From NCBI GenBank assembly GCA_963796455.1, contig CAWCLO010000001.1:128001-192000 (forward strand): a DNA stretch of 64,000 bases, read 5' to 3'. Positions 1-54,761 of the stretch are shown here, piece by piece. The translations under genes were made by a program, and so were the position numbers. The notes beneath the pieces are model-generated. The model had not been told where the DNA came from. It saw only the letters and a list, made by a program, of their open reading frames with translations, and searched no databases. How positions within the stretch are numbered: position 1 is the stretch's first letter; each line of letters starts with the position of its first letter. The DNA is from Candidatus Sulfomarinibacteraceae bacterium. GTDB taxonomy: Bacteria > Acidobacteriota > Thermoanaerobaculia > Thermoanaerobaculales > Sulfomarinibacteraceae.

Positions 1-87
1 ATGGCATCGATGTCCCGATCCCGATCCCGAATAGGGCGGACCGCACCCACATGGCAGAGGAGCATGGGGCCCAGCGATCTTTCAGTA

Positions 88-203
88 TGTCATCCTGAGC
101 GCAGCGCCTCGGGCGCGCAGTCGAAGGATCTATGAGATGGACAAAACGACCCGAGCCGCAGATCCTTCGACTACGCGCCTTTGGCGCTTCGCTCAGGATG
201 ACA
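88..203. repeat. REP-like inverted repeat dyad (two ~44-bp arms, each with an internal GC hairpin)
   Basis: 88-131 TGTCATCCTGAGCGCAGCGCC...GTCGAAGGATCT is the near-perfect reverse complement of 160-203 AGATCCTTCGACT...CGCTCAGGATGACA. Confidence 0.85.
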
Positions 204-246
204 TCGGGAGGCGCCGTTGGCATCCATTGTCAGTGAAGGATGGTTC

Positions 247-278
247 GCCCTTCCTCCCTTTCGCCTTTTCGCCCTTTC
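247..278 (+). repeat. Pyrimidine-rich ~8-nt tandem repeat (CCCTTTCG-like)
   Basis: gcccttcctccctttcgccttttcgccctttc; a similar tract in the same orientation lies at 1176-1248. Confidence 0.6.
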
Positions 279-539
279 GGTAACGGTAACGGGCTCGGGC
301 TCCGGCCCGGGATCCAGCATCCAGGATCACTGCTGTCCAAAACAGATCGTCACGCGAAGTTTTCCAACTGACAACACGTGGCTTACGAGTTGGTTTTTGG
401 CATTTCCGGTCCGTGGTTGCCCCGTGCCCACGTCCGCGTCCGTGCCCGAATTGCAGCGGCAGCGACAGTGTCCAGCGGCGGCGGCAGCGGCAGCGGCAGC
501 GGCAGCGGCAGCGGTCAGGAGTACAGGCGACGAAGTGGC

Positions 540-669
540 CACCTCCGGGTCGTTCAACACAAGGGGTAGCCGGTGGGCGGCCGATGTCAAGGACAGTCAG
601 GGTGCAGGGCATCCTTGACATCGGCCACCACACCGGCTTGTGGGTATGGGCATGAACGACCCGGAGGTG
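540..669 (+). promoter_or_regulatory. Nested inverted repeat/hairpin pairing an anti-SD arm with the RBS of the four-helix-bundle gene
   Basis: 540-556 pairs with 653-669 (17/17, includes GGAGGTG), 568-575 with 631-638 (8/8), and 579-593 with 612-626 (15/15, contains TTGACA). Confidence 0.75.
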
Positions 670-672
670 ACC

Positions 673-1026
673 ATGTCCTCAGCCGCCACGACCACCAACC
701 TCGTTGCCCACTCGAAAGCCCTCGAAGCAGCAGGAATCGCGATCAAACTCGTGATGAGAGTTCCCGCTCCGCTGAAATCCATAGCCGATCAGGTAGTCCG
801 ATCGGCGAGCTCAGTCCCGGCCAACCTGGCAGAAGGCCACGGCCGTTTCGGTAGAGACCGGTTGAACCACTGGAGAATCGCGTACGCCTCCGCGAAAGAG
901 GTCGACAGCCACTTGCAGCTCCTCGCCGACGCCGGGGCGATCAGCCCGAACGGAGCCAGTGAAGCGATGAAGGCCTTCGATCAAGTCCGTGCCATGACCT
1001 GGCGCCTCTTGAACCCGACTAAGTAA
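673..1026 (+). CDS. Four-helix-bundle protein (23S rRNA intervening-sequence protein / Avd-like family)
   Basis: Family-typical motifs IADQVVRSASSVPANLAEGHGR and IAYASAKEVDSHL. SD GGAGGTGA at 663-670 favours ATG 673 over the upstream starts; 117 aa. Confidence 0.9.
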   Translation: MSSAATTTNLVAHSKALEAAGIAIKLVMRVPAPLKSIADQVVRSASSVPANLAEGHGRFGRDRLNHWRIAYASAKEVDSHLQLLADAGAISPNGASEAMKAFDQVRAMTWRLLNPTK

Positions 1027-1175
1027 GGGCTGTCCGCTGACGCTGACGCTGCCCCGGCCGCTGGTCGCTGCCGCTGCCTACTGAACGCTGCCGCCGTCCA
1101 CTGTTCCCTGTCGCTGTTCCTGCCCGAACTCACACCTGGCAGGAGTGATCTCTCATCCAGGAACGAGCGGCGGGC

Positions 1176-1248
1176 CCTTCCCCCTTTCTCCCCTTTCTCC
1201 CTTTTTTCTCCCTTTCCCCCTTTCTCCCCTGCCCCTCTGCTCCTCTGC
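1176..1248 (+). repeat. Pyrimidine-rich ~8-9-nt tandem repeat (CCCTTTCT/CCCCTCTG-like)
   Basis: cccttcccctttctccccttttctcccttttttctccctttccccctttctcccctgcccctctgctcctctgc. Confidence 0.65.
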
Positions 1249-1252
1249 CACG

Positions 1253-1283
1253 AAAAAACCCGGGCCGCGAGGCCCGGGTTGTT
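1253..1283 (-). terminator. Rho-independent terminator of the M13 peptidase gene
   Basis: Minus strand reads AACCCGGGCC-TCGC-GGCCCGGGTT followed by a T run, about 20 nt after the stop codon. Confidence 0.8.
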
Positions 1284-1305
1284 CAAGTTGGTTTCTCGTA
1301 CTGCC

Positions 1306-3348
1306 CTACCAGATCTTCACCCGCTCCTCGGGCGGTAGGTAGAGGGCGTCGCCCTCCTTGACATCGAAGGCCGCCACGAATTCGGGCATATTCGGGACCG
1401 GGCCGTTGACCCGGAATTCCGGTGGCGAGTGGGGGTCAGTCTGGACGCGATTGCGAGTCGCCTCCTCGGTTGCCTTGTATCGCCACACCTGGCCGATGCC
1501 CATAAAGAACCGCTGATCTCCAGTCATACCGTCGATCACCGGGGCTTCCTGGCCGTCGAGCGACATCTGATAGGCACGGTAGGCGATCGTCAGACCGGAG
1601 AGATCACCGATGTTTTCGCCGAGGGTCAGCTCGCCGTTGACATTCAGGTCCTCAAAGACCTGGAATTTTGCATACTGATCGACGAGAGCCTGGGTCCGCT
1701 TTTTGAATTCGGCAAGATCCTCGTCGGTCCACCAGTTGTTCAGATTGCCTTCGCTGTCGTACTTCGAACCTTGATCGTCGAAACCGTGGCCCATTTCGTG
1801 GCCGATCACCGTCCCGATGGCACCGTAGTTGACCGCGTCATCCGCCGCCATATTGAAGAACGGAGGCTGCAGGATGGCGGCCGGGAACACGACTTCATTC
1901 ATCGACGGGTTGTAGTAGGCGTTGACGGTCTGCGGAGTCATCCCCCACTCCCAGTCCCGAATCGGGCCGCCGAGCTTGCTCCGGTCCAGTTCGAAGAAGA
2001 AGAGATTTGCTCGCCGGATATTGCCTACCAGGTCACCATCGACGATTTCGAGATCGGTGTAATCCTCCCAGCGGTCAGGATAACCGACCTTGGGGACGAA
2101 CTTGGCAAGCTTGACCTGGGCCTGAGCTTTGGTCTCGGGGCTCATCCATTCGAGGCCTTCGATGGCCTCGCCATAGGCGGCACGAAGATTTTCAACCAGT
2201 TCGACCATCCGCGCCTTGGCCTCGGGTTTGAAGTGACGGCTCACATAGACCTTGCCGATGACCTCGCCAAGGCTGCTGTTGACCGTGTCGACCCCAAGCT
2301 GCCATCGCGGCCGCTGTTCCTGCTGGCCGTTGAGGGTGCGCTGGTAGAAATCAAAGTCCTGGTCGACGATCGGCGCGGAGAGATAGTTGGCGGTCCGGTT
2401 GAGCAGATTCCACCGCAGATACAATTTCCAGACCTCGACCGGGGTTGCCTCGAATATCTGGTTGAAGCCCTCGAGGTAGCTGGGTTGGTAGATGATGATG
2501 TCGTCTTCGGCCTCGAGTCCAGCCGCTGCGAGAAAGGCCGGCCAATCGACACCATCGCCGAGGGTGCCGAGATCATCGACGGCGAATTTGTTGTAGGTCT
2601 TGTCGCGGTCGCGGTTCTCGACTGTCGTCCAGTGTTTGGCGGCCATCTCGGTCTCGAGGGCCATCAATCTCTGCGCCGATCCCTTTGGGTTGTCAAATCC
2701 GGCCAGCTCGAACATCTTCTCGATGTGGGACACATAGGCCGCGCGAAGCTCGACCGACTTTTCGTCTTCCCGGAAATAATAGTCACGATCCGGCAGACCC
2801 AGACCGCTCTGGTAGAGGTGAGCGGCGTAGCGGGTCGAATCCTTGCCGTCGATCGAGATGAAGACCGTGATCGGGCCACCGGTGCCGAGAATCTTGCTGT
2901 TGGCGAAGTAAGCCGAAAGCTCGCTTCGGTCGGAGATGGCGTCGATGGTTGCGAGCCCGTCGGCAATCGGAGACACACCGAGTTCGTCGAGACGCTCGGT
3001 GTCCATGAAGGAGTTGTAGAGATCGGCCACCTTCTTTTCGTCGGAGCCGGGCTCGAGATCATCACTGGCCGACACATCTTCGATGATCGCCAGCACGTCC
3101 TCGCGCGAGCCGTCGCGGAGGTCCAGAAAGACCCCGGTGTTGGTCCGGTCGGCCGGGATCTCGGCGGTCTCGAGCCAGGTCCCATTGACATAGCGGAAGA
3201 AGTCGTCCTGCGGTCGGACGGATGTGTCCATATTCGCCAGATTGATGCCGCTGGTCAGCACGATCTCCGCCTCCTCGGTGTCGACCGCTGCCTGGCCGCA
3301 CCCGATGAGCGCGAGCAGACACAGCGATCCCAGAATCGTTCGTTTCAT
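1306..3348 (-). CDS. M13 family zinc metalloendopeptidase (PepO/neprilysin-like), lipoprotein
   Basis: VNAYY, HEMGH, ENIGD and DPHSP motifs; lipobox LIGC; SD upstream of ATG 3348. Confidence 0.93.
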   Translation of the reverse strand: MKRTILGSLCLLALIGCGQAAVDTEEAEIVLTSGINLANMDTSVRPQDDFFRYVNGTWLETAEIPADRTNTGVFLDLRDGSREDVLAIIEDVSASDDLEPGSDEKKVADLYNSFMDTERLDELGVSPIADGLATIDAISDRSELSAYFANSKILGTGGPITVFISIDGKDSTRYAAHLYQSGLGLPDRDYYFREDEKSVELRAAYVSHIEKMFELAGFDNPKGSAQRLMALETEMAAKHWTTVENRDRDKTYNKFAVDDLGTLGDGVDWPAFLAAAGLEAEDDIIIYQPSYLEGFNQIFEATPVEVWKLYLRWNLLNRTANYLSAPIVDQDFDFYQRTLNGQQEQRPRWQLGVDTVNSSLGEVIGKVYVSRHFKPEAKARMVELVENLRAAYGEAIEGLEWMSPETKAQAQVKLAKFVPKVGYPDRWEDYTDLEIVDGDLVGNIRRANLFFFELDRSKLGGPIRDWEWGMTPQTVNAYYNPSMNEVVFPAAILQPPFFNMAADDAVNYGAIGTVIGHEMGHGFDDQGSKYDSEGNLNNWWTDEDLAEFKKRTQALVDQYAKFQVFEDLNVNGELTLGENIGDLSGLTIAYRAYQMSLDGQEAPVIDGMTGDQRFFMGIGQVWRYKATEEATRNRVQTDPHSPPEFRVNGPVPNMPEFVAAFDVKEGDALYLPPEERVKIW

Positions 3349-3587
3349 TCCTTGCCTCCCTCGTGGATTTGTTCGGTGGTCACCGATATTCATTTTCCCG
3401 TTTGCACATGTTCGGCCATCGATTCCGGCCCGGAACCGGCCGCGAAGCGATGACTCCCTGATTTATTCGCAAGAAGCTTCAACAAGTTTCAAATCTGGCG
3501 CCGCGATTCGCCGTGTATCATGATGCGGCGAGGGGCCGGGGCGGTTCCGCCGGGGCCCAGCCGGATCGATTACGGAGGTTATCAGCA

Positions 3588-25484: not shown

Positions 25485-25870
25485 GAGTCATTGCTGTTCA
25501 CGACGCGTGTGTCAGCACCAGTGTTCAGGGACGGGAACGGGAGCAGCGACAGCGCCCGTGTCCGAATTGCTTCGGCAGCCGCAATAATCAGGGGCAGCGT
25601 CAGTTTCCAGCGACAGCGACAGTGTTCAGCGGCAGCGGCGGCGGTCAGGTGCAGCAACGGAGGGGCCACCTCCGTGTCGTTCAACGGATGGAGTTGCCGG
25701 AGAAGCGATGACACCCTTCGCTGAGGTCCATGCCATGACATAGCGGCTGTTGAATCCGGAGACTTGAGTACCGTTCGCTGTCACTGTCCCGGCCGCTGGT
25801 CGCTGCCGCTGATTTCTGTTCGCTGACGCTGTCCCTGATCGCTGTACCAGACACTGCCTTGGACCAGGGC
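25485..25870 (+). repeat. Copy B of the CAGCG/CGCTG element (gene-less)
   Basis: Shares with copy A the left end, the GCCACCTCCGxGTCGTTCAAC segment (25665-25685) and the 24-nt identity at 25788-25811. Its central core matches copy D. Confidence 0.8.
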
Positions 25871-25891
25871 GACTGAAATCTCAGGGTTCTC

Positions 25892-32336: not shown

Positions 32337-32728
32337 GATCACTCGGCCCAGGTGGGAAGTGTCGGACAGCGATCAGGGACAGGTACAGGGAACGGCGGAC
32401 AGCGTCAGCGAACATGAGTCAGCGGCAGCGGTCAGTTTTCAGCGGCTGCCTTCAGCCACAGCCTGTCGAGTACGGATGGCACAAAACGCTCAATTCAGGA
32501 AAGTTGGTTGAGCAATCGCCAGGTCGTCGTACGGATCTGATCGCTGCCGCTGATTGCTGAATACTGATCGCTGTTCCCCGTCTCTGGTCCCTGTCGCTGC
32601 CGCTGCAATTCGGGCACGGGCGCGGGCGCGGGGCAACCGCGAACCGGGAATGGCAAAAACAAACCTATAGACCTCGTGTTGTCAGGTGGGCAACTTCAAA
32701 TGACGATTTGTTTTGGACGGCTGTGACT
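32337..32728 (-). repeat. Copy C of the CAGCG/CGCTG element (gene-less, both ends retained)
   Basis: GATCACTCxxxCCAGGTG end matches the right end of copy A. 32590-32728 is the reverse complement of copy A 325-468. Confidence 0.85.
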
Positions 32729-36018: not shown

Positions 36019-36097
36019 GAAAACGTAAAATCAGGTCGAATAGCCGCATTCTTCGCCAAAAACTACAACACAACGCCAATTCTCACACTCTTCCCTC

Positions 36098-36420
36098 TAA
36101 GGCGGTGTCCCGGACAGCGATCAGGGACAGCGACGGGGAGCAGCAGACAGCGTCAGCGGTCAGTGATCCGCGACAGCAGCCAGCGCTCACGTCTTCGGAT
36201 TCGAAAGCTGCCATGTCTTGGTACGGACCTGATCGCTGGCCCTGAACACTGATTGCTGCCCCCTGTCCCTGTTCGCTGTTGCCTGTCGCTGACGCTGAAC
36301 CCTGTCGCTGCCGCTGGCGCTGGACACTGTCGCTGCAATTCGGGATCGGGAACGGGTACGTGCGAACCGCGAACCGGAAATACCAAAATCCAACCGGTCA
36401 ACGGCCGACGCTTTCAGTTT
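36098..36420 (-). repeat. Copy D of the CAGCG/CGCTG element (gene-less)
   Basis: GGACAGCGATCAGGGACAG start as in copy C; core CTCACGTCTTCGGATTCGAAAGCTGCCATGTCTTGGTACGGACCT matches copy B; followed by GCAATTCGGG...AACCGCGAACCGGAAATACCAAAA. Confidence 0.8.
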
Positions 36421-37807: not shown

Positions 37808-37862
37808 AATTCAAAAACGGCAAGGGGCGTGGGGAACCGCGAACCGGATCTACCAAAAACCT
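37808..37862 (-). repeat. Copy G: short fragment of the element left module
   Basis: AATTC...GGGGAACCGCGAACCGGATCTACCAAAAAC resembles 32631-32660 and 36364-36388. Confidence 0.55.
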
Positions 37863-37880
37863 CAGCGAGAAGCTCGGTTG

Positions 37881-38603
37881 TCAATCGAGATGGGCCCGCG
37901 TCTCGGCTTCCGCACCGACGGTTGTCTCGGTCTGAACCCTTTCGATTTCGTCGAGTAGATCCGACGCCGCCAATTGGGCCCATTGCTCTACATCCGCCCA
38001 AAGCGCGGTTTTTGTTCCGTCTTCGGGGGATTCCACGAAATGCATGATTCTCCGGCGCTCGGCCACCCGAGCCTGAATCACTCCGGTTTCGGCGTCGATG
38101 AGATCGAACACGATCGTGCCTGTGGCGACCAGCTGTACGCTGGGGTCGTCGTTTCGGGACTTCTTCAATGCCAGATAAGAAACCATATCGGTGACCCGGG
38201 TGCGTAGAAAAAGCGTATTGGGTCCCGCCTCGCCTGCCACTTCAAATCGTTCACGCCGCTCGAGTTCTGAGATACAGGCATCACCGATGGCCCGCTTGAA
38301 TTTCGCGATGTCTTTGGCCTTTGGTTTCCTGGTGCTGGAGTTTTTCTTGGCGAAGTGGCTGCCGGTCGACGCGACCGATTGACTGCTTTTTGATTCTCGA
38401 AACTCGAGCTCCACAGACATGGGCAACAAACCCTCATATTGGGAGAAGTCGGCATCAGGTCGGATCAAAGTGGTGTGGAAGCGGCCGTCCTGCACAGCCA
38501 GCTCATCGAAACCACTGATCTCGGGTGCATTGTTCTTTTCCTTCGCCCCGATCACTCCCAGACCCATGAACAAAACCAATACGAACGCGAACACTCTTTT
38601 CAC
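37881..38603 (-). CDS. Secreted protein, DUF3313-like
   Basis: Signal peptide, PDADFSQY and FDLIDAETGVIQARVAERR. Confidence 0.6.
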   Translation of the reverse strand: MKRVFAFVLVLFMGLGVIGAKEKNNAPEISGFDELAVQDGRFHTTLIRPDADFSQYEGLLPMSVELEFRESKSSQSVASTGSHFAKKNSSTRKPKAKDIAKFKRAIGDACISELERRERFEVAGEAGPNTLFLRTRVTDMVSYLALKKSRNDDPSVQLVATGTIVFDLIDAETGVIQARVAERRRIMHFVESPEDGTKTALWADVEQWAQLAASDLLDEIERVQTETTVGAEAETRAHLD

Positions 38604-38722: not shown

Positions 38723-38836
38723 TGCCTGAGCTGCAGCGACAGCGGCCGAAGTAGCCGCCGTAGACGGATCGCTGCCGCTGACTACTGATTGCTGACGCTG
38801 TCTTCTGATCCCCGTCGCTGATCGCTGTCCGAGACT
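38723..38836 (+). repeat. Copy E: miniature internally deleted copy of the CAGCG/CGCTG element
   Basis: TGCCTGAGCTGCAGCGACAGCG matches copy A 443-464; ends in CTGATCGCTGTCCGA like the corresponding end of copy C. Confidence 0.7.
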
Positions 38837-38876
38837 CTTTCTTCGACAAGTCGGAGTTTGAATCAAAAAACAGGCG

Positions 38877-53430: not shown

Positions 53431-54513
53431 ATGTCGGATCGAATGCTGCAGCAGTTCATGGACATGGTGCGGATCGACTCGGAATCGGGCAACGAGGCCA
53501 GATTTATGGATTATCTGCTGGGCGAGGTGCGAGCCATCGGCGGCAACGCCGCGCTCGATGACTACGGCAATCTCGTCGCGGTATTCAAAGCGAAGGACTG
53601 CGATGGTGTCGACCCGATCCTGCTGTCGTGCCACGGCGACACGGTCAAACCGGGCATCGGTATCGAACCGGTCCTCCGGGACGGTGTCATCCGCTCCGCG
53701 GGCGACACGATCCTCGGCGCCGATGACAAGGCCGGAATCGCTGAAGTTCTCGAGGCGCTTCGGGTGGCGCCGGTCCGCCCGCCGATCGAGTTTGCCGTGA
53801 GCCGCCAGGAAGAGATCGGACTCCTGGGAGTGAAGGAACTGGACTTCAGTCGACTCAGTGCCCGCCGCGGCTTTCTGATGGACAACGACACCCTCGACAC
53901 CATCATCATCGGCGGTCCGACCTACTTCGCCATCGACGTCGCGGTGACCGGTCGCTCGGCCCACGCCGGGATGGAACCGGAGAAGGGCATCAACGCCATC
54001 CTGGCGGCAGCGAAGGGCATCACTGCGCTGCGACTCGGCAGGATCGATCATGAGACCACCTCCAATGTTGGTGTCATCAACGGTGGGATCATCCGCAACG
54101 GCGTCCCCGATGCCTGCTCCTTCCTCGCCGAGTGCCGCTCGGCCGACCACGACAAGGCGGTCGCCCTTTGCGAAGAAATCACCTCAATTCTGCGAAGAGA
54201 GATCGAGGCGGCCGGTGCCGCTGTCGAAATCGAGGTCGACGAAAAGTGCCGGGCGGTGGAGATCCCCGAAGAGGCGTGGTCGGTCCAGATTGCAAAGCGG
54301 GCCCTGGCAACCGTCGGCATCGACGCCGAAGCGGTCTTCATGACCGGTTTCACCGATGCCTCCATCTACAACAACCGCGGCATTGAAATGGCGGTGGTCG
54401 GCATCGGCGCCCAGAACGAGCACTCGACCGAAGAATGCATCGAGGTCGCCGACATGGAGAAGGCGGTCAAGATGCTGGTCGAGATTTTCCGACTGGTGGC
54501 GACCGGGGACTGA
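53431..54513 (+). CDS. M20 family peptidase (peptidase T-like)
   Basis: HGDTV, GADDKAG, EEIG, MD, HAG and NEHS motifs; SD GGAGGTG. Confidence 0.9.
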   Translation: MSDRMLQQFMDMVRIDSESGNEARFMDYLLGEVRAIGGNAALDDYGNLVAVFKAKDCDGVDPILLSCHGDTVKPGIGIEPVLRDGVIRSAGDTILGADDKAGIAEVLEALRVAPVRPPIEFAVSRQEEIGLLGVKELDFSRLSARRGFLMDNDTLDTIIIGGPTYFAIDVAVTGRSAHAGMEPEKGINAILAAAKGITALRLGRIDHETTSNVGVINGGIIRNGVPDACSFLAECRSADHDKAVALCEEITSILRREIEAAGAAVEIEVDEKCRAVEIPEEAWSVQIAKRALATVGIDAEAVFMTGFTDASIYNNRGIEMAVVGIGAQNEHSTEECIEVADMEKAVKMLVEIFRLVATGD

Positions 54514-54537
54514 TCGAAGGCGTTCATCGCGTCACGG

Positions 54538-54733
54538 GCGGCTGTCCCTGTTCGCTGATGCCTGTCGCTGACGCTGGACACTGTCGCTGCCAACTGTCGC
54601 TGCCGCTGTAATTCGGACGCGGACGCGGACTCGGGCACGGGGCAACCGCAAACCGGGAGTGCCAAAAACCGACCCGTTAACCTCGTGTGGTTCAGTGGGA
54701 AACTTCACGAGACGTGTGTTTTTGGACAGCTAT
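54538..54733 (-). repeat. Copy F of the CAGCG/CGCTG element (one arm plus left module)
   Basis: Reverse complement of copy A 330-475; CTGTCCCTGTTCGCTGxTGCCTGTCGCTGACGCTG shared with copy D. Confidence 0.85.
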
Positions 54734-54761
54734 GCCCGGTTTGCGGTGTGCTGGCCGTCAA

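Follow-up and report, generated by a model that had tools for sequence, protein, structure and literature searches.

In REP/RAYT systems one gene lies between inverted repeats, gene-less copies of the repeat are found between other genes, and the arrangement is lineage-specific. Mobile insertion cassettes are exemplified by MIC231, which belongs to the IS231 subgroup of the IS4 family (PMC6199540). The intervening sequence of Coxiella was shown to be excised by RNase III, and heptamer repeats precede its open reading frame (ORF) (PMC4990558). Heptamer arrays of the GGGAATC and GGGGA(C/T)T types are dispersed between the genes of Xanthomonas and Nostoc, often as convergent pairs, and slippage is a published hypothesis for the heptamer excess (PMC4692102). 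Frpo of F and ColIb-P9 are single-stranded-DNA (ssDNA) promoters (PMC9849209).

We analyzed a 64,000-nucleotide stretch of DNA (the window) from a Candidatus Sulfomarinibacteraceae genome, in which an 820-bp unit at positions 328-1147 is one of 234 family loci of that genome. On balance we favor the reading that the unit is a cassette with IS4 ends, lacking a transposase and moved in trans, and that its cargo is an intervening-sequence-type unit whose protein is predicted to bind its own folded arms. The shell is of a known kind, and the layout of the cargo was not found in print in the literature searched.

Results

Layout of the window copy

The preliminary description of this locus placed a 117-residue gene between a left arm bearing (GCGGCA)5 and a right arm able to pair with it. 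This arrangement stands: the ORF is enclosed by complementary arms (Table 1), and the stretches 458-502 and 1034-1078 are 84% complementary. Folding of the whole unit gave z = -7.06 (versus 20 shuffles). The proposed bounds GATCACT and AGTGATC are present, but the element itself starts with CAC at 328 and finishes with GTG at 1147, the AT being part of the 9-bp target duplication. Likewise, the direct repeat CATCCAGGA is found at 318-326 and 1154-1162, but its right copy lies one 7-nt unit out of register, and the target duplication of this copy is worn. The cassette contains no transposase, its only passenger being the PF05635 ORF, and its neighbors are protein genes, not rRNA. No Rfam family reached threshold in window 1-1400.

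Table 1 Features of the cassette and of its partial copies in the window
Feature	Position	Strand	Remarks
Left flank, (ATCCAGC)-type heptamer array	311..327	+	last 9 nt (319-327) = left target-site copy
Terminal inverted repeat CACTGCTGTCCAA	328..340	+	IS4 right-end type
Conserved subterminal region (module A)	328..452	+	short hexamer run at its end
Left arm, CAG-type 6/7-mer units	453..518	+	contains (GCGGCA)5 at 481-510
Fold-back leader	537..672	+	outer stem ~537-556/653-672; inner stem 576-593/612-629
Promoter-like TTGACA-16 nt-TACCCC, weak -10	563..590	-	predicted ssDNA promoter for the gene
Four-helix-bundle gene, 117 aa	673..1026	+	PF05635 / TIGR02436
Right arm, CTG-type units	1030..1123	+	complementary to left arm
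Right terminal inverted repeat	1135..1147	-	worn: 8/13 versus IS4 left-end type
Right flank	1148..1163	+	versus left target copy: in-register 9-mer 5/9, next heptamer unit (1155-1163) 8/9
Deletion derivative in which half the leader abuts the 3' end of the gene	25485..25875	+	
Deleted copy with 3' gene fragment	32337..32726	-	
Deleted copy with 3' gene fragment	36096..36402	-	
Remnant of left subterminal region	37808..37887	-	
Remnant of right arm and right end	38723..38850	+	
Truncated copy: left end, arm, short gene fragment	54507..54734	-	

The cassette is inserted in a composite island of 6-/8-mer runs (17-69, 239-314 and 1174-1250) that also holds, at 87-204, a REP-like 45-nt inverted repeat of the GTCATCCTGAGC type; this composite family recurs many times genome-wide. 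On the right, an M13 peptidase gene (1306-3393, minus strand) has an intrinsic terminator (1257-1280) that faces the cassette. Copies fixed at orthologous sites in all relatives would have spoken against a mobile family. The expansions are genome-specific, and the cassette was absent beside the M13 peptidase gene in all 14 congeners fetched, loci that are not strict empty sites because their left neighbor is non-syntenic.

Copies in the genome and gene-less derivatives

By tblastn the 5.0-Mb genome contains 59 near full-length copies of the gene, and 58 gene copies are stop-free over the first 115 codons. Profiles of four modules gave the 234 loci: 65 with a full-length gene match, 51 with a gene fragment, 86 in which just the 5' portion of the leader module was matched (some of these may be arm-only, since that module includes arm sequence) and 32 with ends only. 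Hence, the family of gene-carrying and gene-less elements outside rRNA proposed earlier is real and far larger than the window shows. Paired ends were found in 98 copies, none of which lies within a crude ORF call (at least 130 aa), in agreement with the intergenic placement first noted. Convergent gaps are the commonest setting (34 convergent, 15 divergent, 20 co-directional and 29 with one side unassigned). In eight of the 98 copies both ends are of one type.

The six further window sites given in the preliminary description all carry element modules, in both orientations. They are not simply gene-less, however: those at 25485, 32337, 36098 and 54538 keep a 3' gene fragment and thus are deletion derivatives, and the other two are separate end remnants. 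Gene-less copies are deletion or replacement derivatives. One recurring deletion (eight copies) fuses leader and gene at a short shared word and so may have arisen more than once. Two gene-less subfamilies, of six and three copies linked at 90-98% identity, include one shared replacement interior, and every copy of both has a target duplication of 8/9 or better. Spread with intact duplications indicates that the protein is not needed in cis.

Copies also recombine, the four-gamete conflict being 0.55 for near sites versus 0.65 in permutations (2 of 500 permutations were as low). In two copies (C10:352979-353799 and C1:390881-391608) leader and gene together are inverted with respect to the ends; recombination between the two inverted arms is the likely cause. 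Two other elements of this genome were seen in passing: one with three copies (C6:37094, C7:279899 and C7:285081), whose ORF looks IS91-like by its sequence motifs, and a presumably RAYT-like ORF at C4:1143372, recognized in the same manner and present in two copies.

IS4 ends and a 9-bp target duplication

The ends of the cassette are 13-bp inverted repeats of an IS4 family. Both ends are in register in 78 of the 98 paired-end copies, and flank identity peaks at 9 bp, with at most one mismatch in 38 of these 78, compared with 7.1 when the pairings were shuffled. The peak holds in the 23 copies that lie outside arrays, where flank identity was 0.705 for k = 9 but 0.19-0.28 for k = 3-8 and for k = 10-13. 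A 5-bp or 7-bp duplication with the AT inside the ends was rejected, as only k = 9 rises. A duplication of at least 8/9 is reached by 44 of the 98 copies, about half thus being without a clean one, and is equally frequent in full copies (17/38), copies with a gene fragment (7/17) and gene-less copies (20/43).

The preliminary description knew of no mechanism of spread; an IS4 transposase with matching ends nevertheless exists. Among 24 PF01609 loci of the genus, L008 has both cassette ends. It encodes an IS4 transposase (NF033592, 251 bits; cut-off 115) bounded by the same two asymmetric ends, and 18 of the first 19 nt of the window cassette are identical to its right end. In metagenomes both ends, with the same left/right asymmetry, were found at 65 of 80 loci of IS4 homologs; nine of these have a 9-bp duplication, and most homolog loci there also lack a clean one. 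For dispersal in this genome, this transposase and the gene-less subfamilies with their intact duplications provide what the preliminary description had named as evidence against its proposal. Other candidate sources were discarded: the ends of the sole PF01609 match of this genome (L007) differ, and the IS1380-like L009, L013 and L017 match at one end only.

The cognate transposase was not found in the present assembly (90.5% complete) or in the relative G006, these two genomes being the richest in the ends, and an intact one occurs in only 1 of 41 genomes. Its lack bears on present activity, not on origin. End matches numbered 191 here, 86 in G006, 72 in G021, 35 in G008 and none in G004 and G014. 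In G008, G016, G020, G021 and G024 the same ends carry other passengers, REP-like hairpins. Given the IS4 ends and the spread of copies without the gene, the shell is a mobile insertion cassette. From the sequences of ends and flanks we consider it very probable that the cassette was moved in the past by an IS4 transposase acting in trans.

Heptamer arrays as the target

The cassette shows a preference for (ATCCAGC)n arrays: most copies sit in them, and of 36 arrays of this type 29 adjoin an end. The arrays are older than the cassette, because two relatives rich in them nearly lack the ends (242 array matches versus 0 end matches in G015, and 180 versus 1 in G022). The idea that arrays are excision footprints, formed when the 9-bp duplication is joined at the AT ends, was dropped because arrays abound where ends are absent. 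Among the 24 of 34 loci listed, a gene with (ATCCAGC) arms was found in one of three array-rich congeners (G015), and none was found in G022 or G002, both incomplete genomes.

The gene and its protein

The assignment of the protein to the IVP/Avd-like group is confirmed by a PF05635 score of 58.1 bits (cut-off 33.8), a TIGR02436 score that also passes its cut-off and the predicted fold. The structure model of the 117-residue protein (pLDDT 95) resembles Xcc0516 (2GSC; TM 0.82), BT_0352 (TM 0.83) and, at 9-10% identity, the Avd protein of diversity-generating retroelements (DGR; 4DWL, 8UB7; TM 0.77-0.80). Its invariant polar residues are Q40, R43, N51, E54, R58 and E76. No PF00078 reverse transcriptase match was found in this genome, and retro-mobility was set aside on this ground. 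Among viral contigs the window protein had no match, and another PF05635 family member had three loci.

Across 58 copies dN/dS is 0.14 (0.14 for shared variants and 0.58 for singletons), and it is 0.18-0.29 in four relatives. Shared variants of the gene are under purifying selection. However, gene fragments of eight deleted copies gave 0.23 versus 0.20 for the same region of intact genes. As the fragments are as constrained as the intact genes, inheritance or gene conversion may account for the constraint, which, given recombination, describes the gene pool and not each copy.

The fold-back leader

The outer stem of the leader hides the GGAGGTG ribosome-binding site (663-669), and the inner stem pairs TGTCAA with TTGACA. 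In 12 aligned leaders, 12 of the 47 pairs of this two-tier hairpin have two-sided changes; TGTCAA and TAG are almost invariant. Of 126 leaders 79 could be parsed, and in 77 of these the minus strand reads TTGACA, 16-18 nt, TAC. Its -35 and the TA of its -10 are fixed and its spacer covaries; the weak -10 fails a consensus promoter scan, which found no site at TTGACA-TACCCC. When folded, the minus strand would rebuild a promoter that faces the gene, a predicted ssDNA promoter to which we give slightly less than an even chance. At three loci of G006 (L081, L083, L160) and one of G005 (L359), near-identical genes have different inner leaders within the same outer stem; hence, the inside of the stem is exchangeable.

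The stems might instead act in RNA, the arms pairing in the transcript so that RNase III excises the gene loop, with the leader stem as a translational lock. RNA folding does pair the arms, and the ribosome-binding site is covered by the outer stem; RNase III excision is known for the heptamer-bearing Coxiella element (PMC4990558), and family members elsewhere are wedged between co-directional genes, the array beginning at the stop codon of the gene upstream at 28 of 43 loci (a count without control). However, sense-strand mismatches show no excess of G-T over A-C (13:12 and 5:8), the arms in the relative G040 are direct, not inverted, and the copies of this genome lie mostly between convergent genes. 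As excision also offers no route of spread, we regard this explanation as very improbable.

The same cargo in relatives

Matches in 40 relatives ranged from 0 to 54 per genome. Gene and leader are multiplied also in G014, G004 and G040. In G014 the cargo lies inside a second pair of ends, the left one being present in all eight copies fetched and also at L003. In G004 (25 of 45 matches retrieved) and G040 (25 of 46), the copies with long flanks, 19 and 16 respectively, share no terminal repeat. The copies of each genome cluster (seven changes for eight groups) in a tree of 131 copies whose bootstrap is not fully settled. We think that a pre-existing cargo was probably captured by two different transposon shells. 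The second transposon-like ends, GGCTCATCCGGAATT, surround the cargo at L093-L100 (G014) and at L359 and L362 (G005), in cassettes whose insertion sites are 8-mer arrays of the AACGTT type; another PF05635 gene of G005 (L357) has arms of that unit.

Expansion of the cargo outside IS4 ends would also fit an element in which the four-helix-bundle protein moves the whole unit, the IS4-like ends being incidental. Such an element would explain why the cognate transposase is missing from 40 of 41 genomes; low dN/dS of shared variants beside near-neutral singletons is the pattern of a protein serving its own spread, and the invariant polar residues agree with it. We nevertheless judge it improbable, because ends and duplication are exactly those of IS4, the same ends spread gene-less copies and other passengers, the fold has no known catalytic chemistry and the genome has no PF00078 reverse transcriptase.

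PF05635 genes and inverted arrays across bacteria

Other four-helix-bundle genes without these arms had been expected to count against a link between gene and arms. The four other, divergent PF05635 genes of this genome do lack these arms, but each lies between inverted arrays of its own 6-8-mer, and arrays of these units rank among the most frequent dispersed ones in this genome. In the phylum (the 30 best-scoring loci, from 30 genomes) arrays were found on both sides at 22 of 30 loci, compared with 35 of 1200 genes in the present genome, where inverted arrays flanked 3 of the 1200. Plasmid loci (10 of 36 records fetched, eight of them cyanobacterial) had inverted arms by eye in 10 of 10 cases, often inside operons. 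At three of the cyanobacterial plasmid loci (L244, L246 and L253) the PF05635 cassettes are wedged in CRISPR-Cas operons (cas6-cas4; cas10-cmr3).

A further 80 named genomes were retrieved with one family member as query; 25 of the top rows are Acidobacteriota, and the remaining genomes belong to Bacteroidota, Planctomycetota, Chloroflexota, Pseudomonadota and others. Arrays flank the gene on both sides in 40 of 80 versus 0 of 143 shifted windows, and a stem score of at least 12 was reached in 59 of 80 versus 2 of 143 shifted windows and 6 of 150 cross pairings. Thirty array pairs were inverted and one was direct. Among 43 loci of the L254-L333 set, the upstream array begins at the stop codon that ends the gene before it at 28 loci, and its sense strand is rich in purines at 38, both counts being without control.

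In four genomes the unit beside the PF05635 gene is the unit scattered gene-less through that genome. The GGGAATC unit that brackets the Xanthomonas gene at L293 has 242 matches in its own genome and none in four others. The 8-mer of L292 and L309 has 41 and 142 matches in its own genomes and none in three others, and the Bosea unit has 51 in its own genome and none in four others. These counts cover three patterns in five genomes and include overlapping matches, and kin among them are not independent; the fifth genome (L301) had no clear array. Inverted 8-9-mer runs, of a different type for each gene, also bracket genes of another family, GxxExxY (PF13366; L106, L107; C1:453963, 748392, 750134), and the units of these runs make up a gene-less family of ~27 copies.

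Could the gene be a plain passenger, a host-function gene unrelated to the repeats, within an IS4-derived cassette that uses slippage arrays as safe landing sites? The gene is dispensable in cis, the same ends carry unrelated passengers, arrays exist without ends, the slippage hypothesis for heptamer excess is published (PMC4692102) and singleton variants are near neutral (0.58). However, several observations are then left unexplained: PF05635 genes in many phyla are flanked by inverted arrays of a unit particular to each gene, the flanking unit is also the one found scattered through that genome, and the cargo expanded in G004 and G040 without shared ends. We consider it rather unlikely. The data show the association of gene and array, not its direction, and genes could have been placed into existing array pairs. 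From these sequences, the protein may be the missing partner of the repeats that bracket it.

Discussion

The favored reading, an IS4-ended cassette with an intervening-sequence-type cargo, can be put as a series of proposed steps. IS4-type ends and the 9-bp duplication would reflect movement by a transposase supplied in trans; the cargo would consist of the gene, its fold-back leader and inverted short-repeat arms, and the IS4 shell and the second-end shell would each have captured it. The folded template strand of the leader would serve as an ssDNA promoter for the gene. Finally, a ring of the Avd-like protein might bind the arms and help to copy or keep the cargo and the gene-less arrays, much as RAYT does for REP, a step we advance only tentatively. 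A wider reading, similarly doubtful at present, is that PF05635 proteins are the partners of heptamer arrays and would propagate gene-bearing and gene-less pairs via a single-stranded intermediate. Two parts of it are equally conjectural: that this would be a RAYT/REP-like system without a known nuclease fold, each gene recognizing the arrays of its own unit, and that the present subfamily might have added an ssDNA promoter and been hijacked twice by insertion-sequence ends whose targets are arrays of the same class.

Two old questions meet at this locus, the role and mobility of the ORF of rRNA intervening sequences (PMC4990558) and the origin of heptamer arrays (PMC4692102). Our literature search, mostly of journals outside subscription, found no paper linking the PF05635 family to repeat arrays; PMC8700078 and PMC5524665 do no more than list such genes. 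The gene-array link supplies cognate and non-cognate protein-repeat pairs for direct comparison of binding, and the genome itself offers 58 alleles of natural origin, deleted copies that can serve as controls and a defined shell of IS4 type. Should the protein prove idle, there would still be a mobile insertion cassette family of unusual size and an IS4 that targets repeats.

Like MIC231, the cassette has two IS4-family inverted repeats, no transposase and a passenger ORF; MIC231 features also include a size of 0.7-3 kb, movement in trans and modular passengers (PMC6199540). Unlike those of MIC231, the cassette ends fit the IS4Sa signature (CA------T, 8-10 bp repeat; PMC2266710), not that of IS231. 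The cassette differs further in its ~60 gene-bearing copies, its heptamer-array target and its passenger, a repeat-armed unit that multiplies also in other ends or in none.

As in REP/RAYT, inverted repeats enclose one gene, and gene-less copies of the flanking repeat are dispersed in the same genome in a lineage-specific manner. However, the cassette family has tandem 6-8-mers where REP has short palindromes, a PF05635 gene is all that its repeats enclose, with no HUH nuclease, and the direction of cause is not shown.

The arrays resemble those of Xanthomonas and Nostoc in being dispersed intergenic heptamers, and the Xanthomonas unit also brackets a PF05635 gene; the available portion of PMC4692102 names no protein partner for those arrays and leaves their function open. 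As in Frpo, a long fold-back before the gene would rebuild -35 and -10 on the template strand (PMC9849209); unlike Frpo, the cassette leader, for which the promoter is a prediction from sequence, is chromosomal, with a weak -10 and no conjugation context.

The modeled protein shares its fold with DGR Avd (4DWL, 8UB7) and Xcc0516 (2GSC), whereas the low identity to Avd and the lack of a PF00078 match in the genome set the cassette apart from a DGR. The 23S rRNA intervening sequences of Coxiella and Leptospira have the same protein family, complementary arms and tandem heptamers by the ORF (PMC4990558), and rRNA inserts of CPR bacteria include ORF-bearing ones of this protein family (PMC11270868). 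Unlike the intervening sequences, the cassette lies outside rRNA in dozens of intergenic copies and has an extra fold-back leader, and its gene is under purifying selection, not decaying.
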